Positions 22,623-43,251 of a stretch of 44,481 bases of DNA are shown here, piece after piece. Source of the stretch: Marine Group I thaumarchaeote (lineage in GTDB: Archaea; Thermoproteota; Nitrososphaeria; Nitrososphaerales; Nitrosopumilaceae); the NCBI GenBank assembly GCA_044358425.1, contig CP054849.1:914810-959290 (forward strand). The letters run 5' to 3'. Under the pieces are notes generated by a model, which searched no databases, was not told the DNA's origin, and worked only from the letters and a program-made list of their open reading frames with translations. How positions within the stretch are numbered: the first letter of the stretch is position 1; each line of letters starts with the position of its first letter. The translations under genes were made by a program, and so were the position numbers.

Positions 22623-23777
22623 TTAATTGTTATCATTGATAATAATCTCTAAGAAATCAAATTCATCAGCAATACAATTAGTTCCAATAGTGTCAGAAAC
22701 ACTAGGAGTAACATCAGTTCCAATCACAAATCGTTTAATTGGCAACCCACCTTCAACCCTTATTTTTACCAAAATAATTTGATCAGAAGTTTTTTTGTAA
22801 TTTATATCAAAAATTTTTTTTTCATAAGATCTTCCAGATTTTTCAGAAACAATTACGGGGTAATTTTTAAGATTTTTTAATTTTTTCAAACATTTAGAAT
22901 CAAATTTAGAATCAGTTGAAATTTTTATTGTAACCAAAGAGGAAAATTTCAATGGAGTTTTAGGAGAATCACCAACTATCTTCAGATTAAAAATAGAAAT
23001 AAAATCAGAAATACAATCAGAGAGTTTTGTGTTTCTTTTTAATGGATTTTGTAGTTTTACAATAAAAGGTCTACCAGAGCCCAACACCAAGCTAGATTTA
23101 TCCTCACCACCTATCCAAGTAAATTTTGTAGTTGTTCCACCAAATTTTTCAAAAATTAATTTTGAGATAACACCTTCAACACTATTAAATTCAGAAATTC
23201 CATGAAAGTTGCAAGTTCTACATCCTTTACCTGAACAATTCTCACAAGATTTTTGTTTTTGAGAATACCCTCGTTTAGATTTAGTATATCGACCAGAAAT
23301 AATAATCGGTTTTGAACGTAAATTACAAGAATGTTCTTTAAGATTTACAGTAAAAATAATTTCAGGATCATCATAATTTAGAATTTTTTTTGTCTTTTTT
23401 GAAAAAAGTTTTCCTAATTCTTTTGTAATATTAGATTTGATACCATCAATCCCCCTTAACTTAAATTCAGATTTTAAGGCATCATCTCTATCAACAATGG
23501 AAGGTTTGATTATTGTTCCAATACTAAAAGTCCTAAATTCATAATCAAATGAAGAGTCAAGCATTAATTTTGAAAAATGATCTAAATTGTCAAAGAGATT
23601 TTTACAAATGTAACATGAGTGCTTTGATTCATATCCATTCTTTAATTTTTTTCCAAGTAGTTTATTTGAAGATAAGTGAAGATGTTTTGTAAATAATCTA
23701 CCCAAACAATAATCACACAAGGGGTATTTTTTAATAATTTTATTGGAAGTGGAAAGAACAGTAGAATAATTAGACAT
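22623..23777 (-). CDS. pus10: Pus10-family tRNA pseudouridine synthase, divergent catalytic motifs
   Basis: LCDYCLGR, CYIC, GRYTK..R..SQ, CENCSGKGCRTC, GGED...LGSGRPF, GGLPIK. Confidence 0.85.
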   Translation of the reverse strand: MSNYSTVLSTSNKIIKKYPLCDYCLGRLFTKHLHLSSNKLLGKKLKNGYESKHSCYICKNLFDNLDHFSKLMLDSSFDYEFRTFSIGTIIKPSIVDRDDALKSEFKLRGIDGIKSNITKELGKLFSKKTKKILNYDDPEIIFTVNLKEHSCNLRSKPIIISGRYTKSKRGYSQKQKSCENCSGKGCRTCNFHGISEFNSVEGVISKLIFEKFGGTTTKFTWIGGEDKSSLVLGSGRPFIVKLQNPLKRNTKLSDCISDFISIFNLKIVGDSPKTPLKFSSLVTIKISTDSKFDSKCLKKLKNLKNYPVIVSEKSGRSYEKKIFDINYKKTSDQIILVKIRVEGGLPIKRFVIGTDVTPSVSDTIGTNCIADEFDFLEIIINDNN

Positions 23778-23799: not shown

Positions 23800-25125
23800 T
23801 TATCCCAAACCCATTTTTCTAAGGGTACCTTGCATTTGACGACCTTTAGAAGCTTTCATCAAATTCTTAGAATTTTTATAATTTTTCATTAATTCTTTTA
23901 CTTCACCTTCAGGCCATCCAGAACCTCTAGCAATTCTTTTGATTCTTGATGAATTAAGTAAATCAGGATCTGCTTTTTCATCTTTATTCATACTTTGAAT
24001 AATGTATCTCCATTTGGATACTCTATCTTCCATTTGATCAACTTGATCCTCTTTAACCATACCAGACATTCCAGGCATACTGTCAAGGAGTCCTTTAAGA
24101 GAACCAACTTTTGTAACCTCCTCCAATTGATAAAAGAAATCATCCATGTTCATTTTTCCACTAGATATACGCTTCATCCTAACATCATCACCCTCATTTT
24201 CTAATCTTTTTGCTAAATCTAAGACAGCCTGAATATCGCCCATTCCAAGTAATCTTCCAACAAACCGAGTTGGAGAGAATTTTTCTAAATCATCTATTCT
24301 TTCACCAGTACCAATGTACATAATTTGTGCACCAGTTGCAGCAGATGCTGCTAATGCACCACCTCCTTTTGCAGAACTATCTAATTTTGAAATTATAACA
24401 CCACCAACAGGAATTGTTTTATGAAATGCTTCTGCCTGATTGAAACACTGTTGTCCAATGGTACCATCAATTACAAGTAAAGCTAAATCAGGTTCTGCAA
24501 CTTTGTTTATTCTACCCATTTCTTCAAGTAAATCTTGTTCTTCTTTGTGACGACCAGCAGTATCAATAATAATTACATCAAGGGGTTGACCTGCAAAATG
24601 CTTTAAACCATTTTGAACAATGTTTGGAGAATCTTTATTATTTTCTTCTCCATAAACTTCAACATTTGATTTTTCACACATCATTTTTAATTGAACCAAT
24701 GCTCCCGGTCGATATGTATCAGCACCAACAACACCAACTTTATGACCTTCTCCAGTCAAAAATTTAGCAAGTTTTGATGCAACTGTGGTTTTACCACTTC
24801 CCTGAATTCCTAATAAGATAATTTTATTTTGTTTTCCAGGTTTAAAATCAAAATTAGATTCATTACCCAATAATTTTGATAATTCATCATATAGAATTTT
24901 TACAATATGATCTTTACGGGATAATCCAGGAGGAGGGGTTTCATTTAATGAGCGTTCTTCCAATCGTTTAGTAATTTCAAGTACTAATCGGACATTAACA
25001 TCAGAAGTCAATAAAGCCCGTTGAACGTCCTTACAGAGATCTTTAATTAATTCTTCATCAATGCCTGAAGATTTAACAATTTTTTTAATTGCATCGCCTA
25101 AACTACTTTTTAATCCATCAAGCAT
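23800..25125 (-). CDS. srp54: Signal recognition particle protein SRP54
   Basis: GIQGSGKTT, DTYRPGA, DTAGRH, KLDSSAKGGGA, M-domain SRIKRIARGSG. Confidence 0.97.
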   Translation of the reverse strand: MLDGLKSSLGDAIKKIVKSSGIDEELIKDLCKDVQRALLTSDVNVRLVLEITKRLEERSLNETPPPGLSRKDHIVKILYDELSKLLGNESNFDFKPGKQNKIILLGIQGSGKTTVASKLAKFLTGEGHKVGVVGADTYRPGALVQLKMMCEKSNVEVYGEENNKDSPNIVQNGLKHFAGQPLDVIIIDTAGRHKEEQDLLEEMGRINKVAEPDLALLVIDGTIGQQCFNQAEAFHKTIPVGGVIISKLDSSAKGGGALAASAATGAQIMYIGTGERIDDLEKFSPTRFVGRLLGMGDIQAVLDLAKRLENEGDDVRMKRISSGKMNMDDFFYQLEEVTKVGSLKGLLDSMPGMSGMVKEDQVDQMEDRVSKWRYIIQSMNKDEKADPDLLNSSRIKRIARGSGWPEGEVKELMKNYKNSKNLMKASKGRQMQGTLRKMGLG

Positions 25126-25807
25126 TGTAATTTAACTCCGCATCCACTATTTCAAACCTTCCTCTATAACCATCCCAATTTTTTGTGAATTTATTAATTT
25201 TAATTGAACTAAAAAATAGTGGGCAGTCAGTAACAAAAGTTTCAGCCTCACCACCCTCAAAATTCAGATTAAATCCAAATTTATCAGATAATGTTTCCAA
25301 AGTGTTCACATCAGATTTTGAAATCAATTTGCCTAACCATTGATCGTCTAAACCATCTGATGATACAGTAGTCATCATAAAATGAAAGTCTGATTCAAGT
25401 AAATCATTCATGTATTTTTTAGGTTCACTTTCCCACAATGGGGAAACAAGAATTAAATTTAATTTCTCACATAAAATTTCAAATTTTTCTTTTTGAAATT
25501 TACTTTTTATTCCACCATGAACTAATCCTTCAATTTTAAATTCATCAATTGCATTTTTCAATAGTTTCTCTAAAACAATTAATTCATCATTTGTCTCATC
25601 TGAAGATGAATCAATGATTAGTTGAGGAATTTTCATTGATTCAGATTGTAATTTTGTCCATTTTAAATTCGGATGGTGCAAAAGATGACTTTCATCAGAT
25701 TTTGGAAAAACACTCAACAGACAAGTAACTTCATGACCCTGTTTTTTTACAAGATGAATTGCATAGGTACTATCCTTTCCACCTGAAAAAAGACAAGCTA
25801 ATTTCAT
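25118..25807 (-). CDS. dph6: Diphthine--ammonia ligase (PP-loop ATPase)
   Basis: SGGKDS, PLW, EGGEAET. Confidence 0.88.
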   Translation of the reverse strand: MKLACLFSGGKDSTYAIHLVKKQGHEVTCLLSVFPKSDESHLLHHPNLKWTKLQSESMKIPQLIIDSSSDETNDELIVLEKLLKNAIDEFKIEGLVHGGIKSKFQKEKFEILCEKLNLILVSPLWESEPKKYMNDLLESDFHFMMTTVSSDGLDDQWLGKLISKSDVNTLETLSDKFGFNLNFEGGEAETFVTDCPLFFSSIKINKFTKNWDGYRGRFEIVDAELNYNA

Positions 25808-25854
25808 CAATCAATAAAAATAATCACCTCAATAAAATTCTAAAATATTTTAAA

Positions 25855-25919
25855 AGATGCTTCAATACTCATAATCGTCATCACAAATCAGACGGCTTTT
25901 CCGATAATCATCAGCATCT
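25855..25919 (-). ncRNA. Box C/D 2'-O-methylation guide sRNA
   Basis: Minus strand: C box CTGATGA (25914-25908), D' CTGA (25891-25888), C' GTGATGA (25884-25878), D TTGA (25865-25862), closed by a terminal stem AGATGCT/AGCATCT. Confidence 0.85.
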
Positions 25920-26017
25920 ATGAAAATTTAGTAATCATAGAATTTTAGTGCTGTGATTAAAAAATCAATTAATAATTTTTAAGTAAATAATTTTAAAAAT
26001 ACTAGAAAATATCCACT

Positions 26018-26431
26018 CTAACTATTTTTTATAGCCATAATTTTGGTGTGTTCCATAACAACCCAATATTCAACATTTTGTCCATTTTCTAATTTGCCTG
26101 CAACGGATTCATCAACCATACCAACATCTATGGTTTCAAAAGATTCATTGTCCATAACTTGTACAGTATCGCCATTAATTGAGATGATTTGGCCAACTTT
26201 TTTGTTGATCATTGGAACATGGATTTGCATACTGACAGGTCCAACATGAGGTCTGTTTTTACCATCAAAGATACCTTGGCCAACTATTCGAGCTTTTGCT
26301 GCACCGTGTTTACCAGGTTTTGATGTATCATATTCAATAATTCTACAAGCTTCACCACTAGGCTGATCCGTATGTGGAAGTAAAATGTATGATCCAATTT
26401 TTAATGAACCTAAATCAGAGGGTTTACTCAT
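26018..26431 (-). CDS. eif5a: Translation factor aIF5A
   Basis: SKPGKHGAAK hypusine motif. Confidence 0.97.
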   Translation of the reverse strand: MSKPSDLGSLKIGSYILLPHTDQPSGEACRIIEYDTSKPGKHGAAKARIVGQGIFDGKNRPHVGPVSMQIHVPMINKKVGQIISINGDTVQVMDNESFETIDVGMVDESVAGKLENGQNVEYWVVMEHTKIMAIKNS

Positions 26432-26462
26432 AAAAAACAGTTTTTGCTCGAATATTTAACTT

Positions 26463-27074
26463 CTACTTTAGTTGATCAAGAATAGAAAGACTCAAGAGAT
26501 TAGATAAAGTAAAGCCTTTTCTAGTAACATCTCGTTGTGTTTGATCACAATATTTTTTGACACTTTGATGACTTTTCTCACTAGCAACTTCAATTACAAT
26601 CATATTTTCAGAATAAGGGAAAGTAAATTTTGAAGGTGTGGAACAACTAGTAGTCATATTTCCAATTCCAGCTACTTCAATTTTTTCTCGCTTTAACAGT
26701 AAACCTGCAATTTCAACTAAATCATCCATATCTTCTCCATATTCTAAATAATATATTGAAATGAAATTTGTTTCGCCTAAAACTTCTCTTTCAAAGAGAT
26801 CATCATGGATATTGAAAACAAATGATGTTTTTTCTTGAATATGTTTGGACAATTCTTTTTCTACAATTGAACTATCCTTGAATTTCGCCAACAAATAATG
26901 ATTTGCAGATGTTGAAAAATATGGTTGGCTATCTCTCGAAAAAGTACCAGTTACAAAAAATAATTTTTCAATATTTTTGGAATTTGACCAAGATTCTTTT
27001 AATTCAAGTGAATCTCGATTGTGTAAATATGGTGCACATACATATCCGGGATAAGATAATTTTAATTCAGACAC
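26463..27074 (-). CDS. Hypothetical protein
   Basis: 203-aa ORF with GTG start filling the space upstream of eIF5A; no motif recognised. Confidence 0.7.
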   Translation of the reverse strand: MSELKLSYPGYVCAPYLHNRDSLELKESWSNSKNIEKLFFVTGTFSRDSQPYFSTSANHYLLAKFKDSSIVEKELSKHIQEKTSFVFNIHDDLFEREVLGETNFISIYYLEYGEDMDDLVEIAGLLLKREKIEVAGIGNMTTSCSTPSKFTFPYSENMIVIEVASEKSHQSVKKYCDQTQRDVTRKGFTLSNLLSLSILDQLK

Positions 27075-27167: not shown

Positions 27168-27294
27168 CCCGTGGTAGCTCAGCCTGGTAGAGCTTCCGGC
27201 TGTAGTTGTTGGCTTAAGATGGCTGACCGAAAAACAGCATATCAGGCATACAGAAACCGGGTTGTCGCATGTTCAATTCATGCCCGCGGGACCA
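27168..27294 (+). tRNA. tRNA-Tyr(GTA) with a 50-nt intron at 37/38 (27206-27255); CCA encoded
   Basis: Acceptor CCCGTGG/CCGCGGG (C1-G72, A73), anticodon GTA at 27202-27204, T arm GCATG TTCAATT CATGC, BHB helix CTGT/ACAG. Confidence 0.95.
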
Positions 27295-43122: not shown

Positions 43123-43148
43123 TTTTTGAAATTTTAGTATAATTATAG

Positions 43149-43251
43149 TGCAGAGGGTGGGATTTGAACCCACGAACTCCTAAGAGAAGGGATTTCCTAT
43201 ATTATAGAGATCTTGAGTCCCTCTCGGTTGACCGGGCTTCGATACCTCTGC
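43149..43251 (-). tRNA. tRNA-Leu(CAA) with an intron of about 18 nt (43194-43211 if at 37/38)
   Basis: Acceptor GCAGAGG/CCTCTGC-A, stem AGGGA/TCCCT, anticodon at 43215-43213, long variable arm, T arm GTGGG TTCAAAT CCCAC. Confidence 0.92.

Follow-up and report, generated by a model that had tools for sequence, protein, structure and literature searches.

The closest described counterparts of the locus reported here are guide RNAs for the wobble base of elongator tRNA-Met. In Haloferax volcanii, sR-tMet is a box C/D guide for C34 of the intron-containing elongator tRNA-Met (PMC4033218 and PMC2584109). The available portion of PMC2584109 also states that in haloarchaea the methylation of tRNA-Met must come before splicing, names Pyrococcus sR49 as a predicted Cm34 guide for tRNA-Met, and counts 18 archaeal candidate guides for tRNA-Met Cm34. 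Pyrococcus has in addition guides for position 34 of tRNA-Leu(CAA), according to the part of PMC7994747 at hand. In human cells, SNORD97 and SCARNA97 were found through knock-out and rescue to direct a D-box-dependent Cm34 of elongator tRNA-Met(CAU), and this Cm34 guards the tRNA from angiogenin (excerpts of PMC6601510). Concerning ribosomal RNA, Cm2880 of Arabidopsis 25S rRNA is equated with human Cm4456 and assigned to AtU49/ZmU49 in a table of PMC8583080. In the literature searched, we found no description of box C/D sRNAs in ammonia-oxidising archaea, and the 18 candidates of PMC2584109 may include a relative of the RNA described below.

The window, that is, the whole stretch of 44,481 nucleotides that was analysed, contains a 65-nt element between the genes for aIF5A and a Dph6-like protein. 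To judge from its sequence, this element is quite probably a true box C/D sRNA of the archaeal methylation-guide type in which both guides work, one on tRNA-Met and the other on 23S rRNA. It most likely directs Cm34 of elongator tRNA-Met and the methylation of one base near the catalytic centre of the ribosome.

Layout and genomic setting of the sRNA

The features of the sRNA and its neighbours are as follows (window positions).

25855-25919, minus strand: whole box C/D sRNA, 65 nt, recognised from its sequence layout; conservation in relatives is limited to the RNA
25914-25919, minus strand: 5' strand of the terminal stem, AGAUGC, 6 nt; compensatory changes in 6/6 pairs
25908-25914, minus strand: C box CUGAUGA; the core UGAUGA occupies 25913-25908, with the C ahead of the core
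25892-25907, minus strand: D' guide/spacer UUAUCGGAAAAGCCGU, 16 nt; the D'+5 nucleotide is G at 25896
25888-25891, minus strand: D' box CUGA, invariant in 25 aligned members
25878-25884, minus strand: C' box GUGAUGA, with UGA and GA invariant in 25 aligned members
25866-25877, minus strand: D guide CGAUUAUGAGUA, 12 nt; the D+5 nucleotide is G at 25870, opposite C34 of elongator tRNA-Met
25862-25865, minus strand: D box UUGA, non-canonical; all 25 aligned members have the GA, and at least 90% have the U before it
25855-25860, minus strand: 3' strand of the terminal stem, GCAUCU, seen through covariation; a short T run comes after the stem
26018-26431, minus strand: aIF5A gene (Pfam IF5A-like_N and eIF-5a), the upstream neighbour
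25118-25810, minus strand: Dph6-like diphthamide synthase gene (Pfam Diphthami_syn_2, E = 7e-55), the downstream neighbour
23800-25125, minus strand: SRP54 gene (Pfam)
22623-23777, minus strand: Pus10 gene (Pfam)

All four neighbouring genes are on the minus strand, and the sRNA must therefore be read on that strand. The order is stem, C box, D' spacer, D' box, UUU linker, C' box, D guide, D box, a single A, and stem. Near the 5' end lies a C box of the RUGAUGA type known from archaeal box C/D guides, the internal D' and C' boxes are separated by a 3-nt linker as in such guides, and a terminal stem of 6 bp joins the two ends. The box cores did not vary among the 25 distinct members aligned; in the C box, AUGAU was invariant and the G before it nearly so.

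The canonical D box is CUGA and archaeal guide spacers are usually 12 nt. Here the spacer is 12 nt on the D side and 16 nt on the D' side, and the D box is UUGA. In the K-turn model the first D-box base is paired to the second G of UGAUGA, and a U at this place would give a G-U pair. This first base is U, A or G in the own family and C in other families, and AUGA or ACGA boxes were found among relatives. Other box C/D sRNAs of the clade (loci L026, L142 and L145) were also observed with a D' spacer of 15-16 nt, a D spacer of 12 nt and a UUGA or AUGA D box, which suggests a lineage-wide variant of the archaeal architecture.

The initial annotation, made from the sequence alone, had described a full C, D', C', D layout closed by a terminal stem of 7 bp and lying between eif5a and dph6 on their strand, in a gene run with SRP54 and Pus10. 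The layout was borne out, but the D box is UUGA instead of CUGA, and the D' spacer, taken there as 12 nt, measures 16 nt. The ends do close with 7 pairs in RNAfold, one U-A pair extending the 6-bp stem that was tested for covariation, and Pfam searches confirmed all four neighbours (aIF5A, Dph6, SRP54 and Pus10); the sRNA does lie between the first two on the same strand.

The element is more than a chance arrangement of boxes. A strict pattern of the full layout with a stem of at least 5 bp matched only the sRNA site in the 1.36-Mb genome, and no site in any of five shuffled genomes. All six pairs of the terminal stem showed compensatory changes, with 96% of the cells in the alignment paired; none of 500 shuffles equalled this, and in slid stem registers the paired cells fell to 34-61%.

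At Rfam gathering thresholds there was no match at the sRNA site. When Rfam was searched in E-value mode, 17 of the 18 weak matches in a 401-nt stretch and 21 of the 22 in a 96-nt stretch were C/D-box families, all on the minus strand. The best E-value of all Rfam matches there belonged to sR41 (RF01126; 22.4 bits, gathering threshold 54). Below their thresholds were also SNORD97 (RF01291; 21.3 bits in the 401-nt search and 14.2 in the 96-nt search, threshold 45), snoR28 (24.8, threshold 63), SNORD49 (RF00277; 13.6 bits, threshold 37) and sR-tMet (RF02163; 14.7 bits, E = 2.2, threshold 50), the last with an alignment that covers UAUGAGU of the D guide. A weak resemblance to plant snoR77Y, whose guide presumably fits the 530-loop of 18S rRNA, was judged coincidental.

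The setting of the sRNA is well kept in relatives. Among same-genus loci, Dph6 adjoins the sRNA in 22/22 and eIF5A in 19/22. In an order-wide set of 30 loci, Dph6 adjoins it in 25, eIF5A in 22, and at least one of the two in 28. Most same-genus copies begin 3-8 nt past the eIF5A stop codon and are followed by TTTT(T); the gap from the eIF5A stop to the sRNA is 98 nt in the study genome. Upstream of eIF5A, an ORF of 203 aa (window 26463-27074, minus strand) belongs to no Pfam family and is kept beside eIF5A in many relatives.

We also inspected metatranscriptome contigs over 24800-26800. Contigs of one run out of four (X1) overlap the sRNA and come from relatives with many differences, and those of runs X2, X3 and X6 do not cover it; assembled contigs are blind to transcript ends, strand and small RNA and may include carried-over DNA, so nothing follows from them either way.

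Predicted targets of the two guides

Through ARAGORN with introns allowed, 36 tRNAs were found in the genome, three of them with a CAU anticodon: the initiator with its GGG/CCC anticodon stem, an Ile-like tRNA, and an intron-containing elongator tRNA-Met. The Ile-like tRNA is presumed to be tRNA-Ile2, as suggested by an acceptor stem and D arm that resemble those of tRNA-Ile(GAU). The elongator tRNA-Met gene is located at G000:C1:317228-317343 on the minus strand (locus L034) and has an intron of 40 nt. Exon 1 ends with GCCAG and exon 2 starts with ACUCAUAAUCUGG, which places the intron between positions 30 and 31. This splice assignment departs from that of ARAGORN and yields a regular 5-bp stem and a 7-nt loop.

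Position 30/31 is an unusual place for an intron. It was observed that the intron is about 20 nt in other families and absent in family f15, and in two genomes (G035 and G029) inspection by eye suggests a second intron, in the form of extra sequence past the anticodon arm of the tRNA-Met gene.

Guide positions 2-11 were scanned against all tRNAs, the spliced tRNA-Met and both rRNAs (7476 nt in total). The D guide forms a perfect 10-bp duplex with positions 31-40 of elongator tRNA-Met, ACUCAUAAUC, and the D+5 base faces C34. No other perfect 10-bp duplex of the D guide was found among the 36 tRNAs and the rRNAs. Shuffled D guides reached a perfect 10 bp anywhere in 15 of 3000 cases, and in any tRNA in none of the 3000. 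Over its whole length the D guide pairs with 11 of the 12 nucleotides of the genomic target, the exception being its 5'-most C, which faces U41. When no more than one mismatch was allowed, the 12-mer target turned up at three places in the genome other than the guide itself, one of them tRNA-Met.

In place of the A31 and U39 of tRNA-Met, the initiator and the presumed tRNA-Ile2 carry G31 and C39, and neither passed the guide scan. Judged by complementarity, the D guide is specific to elongator tRNA-Met among the CAU tRNAs. What the scan shows is this specificity; a role of Cm34 in telling tRNA-Met from the agmatidine-modified tRNA-Ile2, as the initial annotation suggested, would be a further and hypothetical step. 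Both predictions of the initial annotation hold here: aligned with the CAU tRNAs of the genome, the guide places its D+5 base on C34 of the elongator, and the A31/U39 pair, which it had brought forward for the elongator over the initiator, does separate the elongator from the other two.

Two further tRNAs were considered as substrates and judged unlikely. tRNA-Ile(GAU) pairs over 9 bp with a G-G clash at the target nucleotide itself, and tRNA-Lys(CUU) pairs over 9 bp with a mismatch beside the target nucleotide.

The second guide was overlooked in the initial annotation, as was the non-canonical nature of the D box. The 12 bases beside the D' box have one perfect 10-bp match, in 23S rRNA, with D'+5 on C2609; 19 of 3000 shuffled D' guides did as well. 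Both guides thus pair with a stable RNA in the N+5 register at the length expected of such guides (at least 9-10 bp), one on tRNA-Met C34 and the other on 23S C2609. Through alignment to the annotated E. coli 23S gene, C2609 was found to correspond to C2510 of E. coli, which comes shortly after A2503-U2506 on the 3' side. This site could be considered that of Arabidopsis Cm2880 and human Cm4456 because each lies 42 nt before the A-loop Um (U2552, 2922 and 4498, respectively), an equivalence that is based on spacing and not on alignment.

The D' guide and its rRNA target show two forms. In six genomes of the own family, rRNA GGCUUUUCC (UUUU) occurs together with guide GGAAAAGCC (AAAA), and in four genomes of other families rRNA GGCUCUUCC (UCUU) occurs together with guide GGAAGAGCC (AGAA). 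Guide and rRNA are consistent in 10 of the 12 genomes checked, the co-change counting as a single event on the tree. By comparison of these sequences, the changes in guide and in rRNA fall on the same branch, the one leading to the own family. The other two genomes (G111 and G103) combine an A-form guide with a C-form rRNA, giving an A-C mismatch; as their sRNA copies sit away from the eIF5A locus and have another D guide, they may be paralogues.

Some other RNA genes were observed in the genome. A second box C/D sRNA at G000:C1:84845-84916 (plus strand) has the D guide GGAUCUUGAGUU and a canonical CUGA D box. This guide forms a perfect 10-bp duplex with tRNA-Leu(CAA), with D+5 on C34, and the target tRNA is encoded in the window at 43148-43251 (minus strand); the same guide appears in the second-best matches of three other genomes (G038, G027 and G086) to the covariance model R1 described below. 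The window holds two tRNA genes with introns, tRNA-Tyr(GUA) at 27168-27294 (plus strand) and the above tRNA-Leu(CAA). ARAGORN reported no tRNA in the window by default and both of them with its intron option, and tRNA-Leu(CAA) was also detected by Rfam.

Distribution of the family and the predicted function of its guides

Strong BLAST matches were found in 21 of 24 same-genus genomes, and the similarity spans the RNA and not its flanks. A covariance model (R1) was built from the alignment of 25 distinct sRNA members. It gave 90.9 bits on the own sRNA (window 25850-25924, which is 5 nt beyond the RNA on each side) and recovered the copy of G002, one of the three same-genus genomes missed by BLAST. 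With R1 the family was found in 110/151 genomes of the order and in 132/151 genomes of the class. In the other orders of the class, matches were found in f24 (7/7), f25 (6/6), f26 (11/12), f27 (1/1), f21 (3/8) and f22 (1/10), and none in the single genomes of f23, f28 and f29 (0/1 each). The initial annotation had proposed to look at the conservation of boxes and guides across Nitrosopumilaceae: all 92 genomes of this family carry the sRNA by R1, a count that takes in the unpublished genome G256.

Of the 73 members collected from the order, 41 have the 10-nt core of the D guide, GAUUAUGAGU, without any change. By family it is present in 23/24 members sampled of the own family, 13/16 of f15, 3/4 of f12 and 2/2 of f6, and absent from f4 (0/8), f9 (0/9), f13 (0/4), f19 (0/4), f8 (0/1) and f17 (0/1). 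In other orders, R1 gave matches in 29 genomes and the best match was retrieved for 19, of which 12 have the exact core, six a one-base variant and one a more divergent sequence. On the side of the tRNA, the intron-containing tRNA-Met gene is 91-100% identical over its full length in 23 of 24 same-genus genomes, and none of the 30 tRNA-Met loci examined in the order departs from the target ACUCAUAAUC at the start of exon 2.

Four families (f4, f9, f13 and f19) have replaced the D guide: none of their 25 members has the tRNA-Met guide, and the D' guide is kept. In five genomes without the tRNA-Met guide in this sRNA, a search for a relocated copy gave three pattern sites in two genomes, none of them with boxes. 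The tRNA function is therefore either dispensable in these families or provided in another way.

The replacement guides were examined for targets of their own. For f9 we found a conserved and different D guide, UACCAGUUCAAU, next to a retained rRNA guide (L030, L113, L123, L125, L126, L130, L132 and L133); this guide has no tRNA or rRNA match and is treated as an orphan guide. In 5/5 genomes of one genus the complement of its positions 1-11 is also found at a conserved site, where the strand identical to the guide is, by eye, the start of a conserved ORF. Retargeting to C34 of another tRNA was considered for two more families. For f17 (G040) it is a candidate reading, the D guide being a perfect match to the tRNA-Leu(CAA) of the study genome; for f13 a match to tRNA-Gln is unsupported, as the exact 11-mer occurs only in the sRNA gene and at one non-tRNA site.

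These replacements, together with the D' core being the most constant part of the sRNA across the class and the D box being non-canonical, might suggest that only the rRNA guide works and that the D guide is an orphan, its match to tRNA-Met being a coincidence or a relic; the available part of the review PMC7994747 reports many orphan guides in archaea. We consider this unlikely. No shuffled guide gave a perfect 10 bp to any tRNA, and the register falls exactly on position 34, where an RNA-guided Cm exists in Haloferax and human. The core is also unchanged in at least four families within the order and five outside it, and there is variation around it, in the guide positions on either side, in the linker and in the D-box base that comes first.

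The intron at 30/31 allows another reading, in which the D guide acts mainly as a chaperone or timing device for pre-tRNA-Met, keeping the anticodon region around the intron open, and methylation is secondary or absent. The 40-nt intron is conserved in the genus at the 91-100% given above, the folded precursor leaves the target largely unpaired, and the haloarchaeal order of methylation before splicing (PMC2584109, available portion) would fit such a role. However, family f15 has an intron-less tRNA-Met with ACUCAUAAUC retained and keeps the same guide, so that recognition across the class does not depend on the intron. The outer guide positions 1 and 12 do not track the tRNA (C against U41 here, A against G41 in f15), which indicates that the selected pairing is with exon positions 31-40; the invariant core matches these alone, and the guide position that faces the last intron base varies. 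Methylation would call for strict conservation of the D+5 base and of its target nucleotide, which is what is observed, and a chaperone or timing role is very unlikely to be the main one.

Finally, a conserved DNA or mRNA element without an RNA gene, such as an eIF5A terminator, a 3' UTR structure or a dph6 leader, would fit the position directly past the eIF5A stop and before a T run in most relatives, but it is hardly credible, since the four boxes are conserved, the stem covaries, there are two 10-bp complementarities to stable RNAs in the N+5 register, one of them with a co-change, and a simple terminator hairpin gives no reason for unpaired guides to be conserved.

We return to the methylation guide with two targets as the preferred explanation. 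The protein partners may be at hand: the Nop and fibrillarin domains are found in one ORF of 718 aa (L155:415-2571, minus strand; G000:C1 at about 292.3-294.4 kb). The linker of this ORF, whose sequence was partly masked (X), is a long arginine/glycine-rich repeat (GGRRE... units) and resembles the GAR domain of eukaryotic fibrillarin. The sRNA is probably transcribed together with eIF5A and processed out of the 3' end of that transcript, and would bind L7Ae and the Nop5-fibrillarin protein. The D-guide core would then pair with positions 31-40 of tRNA-Met(CAU), and fibrillarin would methylate the 2'-OH of the wobble C34 (Cm34); the initiator and tRNA-Ile2(CAU) would be left alone because their positions 31 and 39 differ. 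The D' guide would pair with 23S rRNA just after the nucleotides of the peptidyl-transferase loop and lead to the methylation of the C equivalent to C2510. Weighing against this explanation are the UUGA D box, the 16-nt D' spacer and, once the tRNA is spliced, the need to unpair target positions 31, 39 and 40, which belong to the anticodon stem.

We might go further and speculate that one dual-guide RNP, joining the U49/SNORD49 site in 23S rRNA and the SNORD97 site at C34 of tRNA-Met and released from the 3' end of eIF5A mRNA, is ancestral to the class, though the proposal as a whole is rather doubtful. If true, the methylation of ribosome and tRNA-Met would be tied to the expression of a translation factor, and both guide functions would predate the split from the lineage leading to eukaryotes, where they are found on separate snoRNAs.

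Comparison with known guides

The guide function for tRNA-Met Cm34 is already known, and the function proposed in the initial annotation is right in kind, although the Pyrococcus sR49 and human SNORD97/SCARNA97 work went unmentioned there. Its description of the sRNA as a functional counterpart of the haloarchaeal guide agrees with the same C34 being predicted here and with the sub-threshold overlaps of sR-tMet and SNORD97, and does not extend to family membership: at 14.7 bits against a gathering threshold of 50, the sRNA is no sequence-family member of sR-tMet.

Like sR-tMet, the sRNA is a free-standing box C/D RNA whose D guide is predicted to act on C34 of elongator (pre-)tRNA-Met. The two differ in the pairing and in the partner guide. 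The haloarchaeal guide also pairs with intron bases, as given in the available portion of PMC2584109, and the core here matches exon positions 31-40 only. The intron here lies at 30/31, before the anticodon, and the partner guide has an evident target in rRNA.

Pyrococcus has a predicted position-34 guide for tRNA-Met (sR49) and guides for the same position of tRNA-Leu(CAA), and guides for both tRNAs are predicted here too. The consensus of Sulfolobus sR41 shares UAUGAG ahead of the D box, and by our reading of this consensus sR41 may target tRNA-Met.

SNORD97 and SCARNA97 differ in being eukaryotic, intron-encoded and large (142 and 216 nt), and in being two cooperating RNAs; to our knowledge, the protection from angiogenin has no archaeal counterpart. 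On the rRNA side, the D' guide picks the site equivalent to E. coli C2510 as does U49/SNORD49 (AtU49/ZmU49), and the consensus of Plasmodium snoR28 shares GGAA..GCCGUC ahead of the D' box.

With this sRNA, which is predicted to be a mixed rRNA/tRNA dual guide, the ammonia-oxidising archaea join haloarchaea, Pyrococcus and humans among the groups where an RNA-guided Cm34 of tRNA-Met is predicted or shown, and another lineage with such a predicted guide makes an ancient origin of this route more plausible. It also provides two precisely predicted sites, C34 of tRNA-Met and the equivalent of C2510 in 23S rRNA, for an abundant marine group in which RNA modification has received little study. Compared with the described guides, what is new is the lineage, the depth of conservation, the exon-only pairing, the variant D box, the long D' spacer and the conserved pairing with an rRNA guide.
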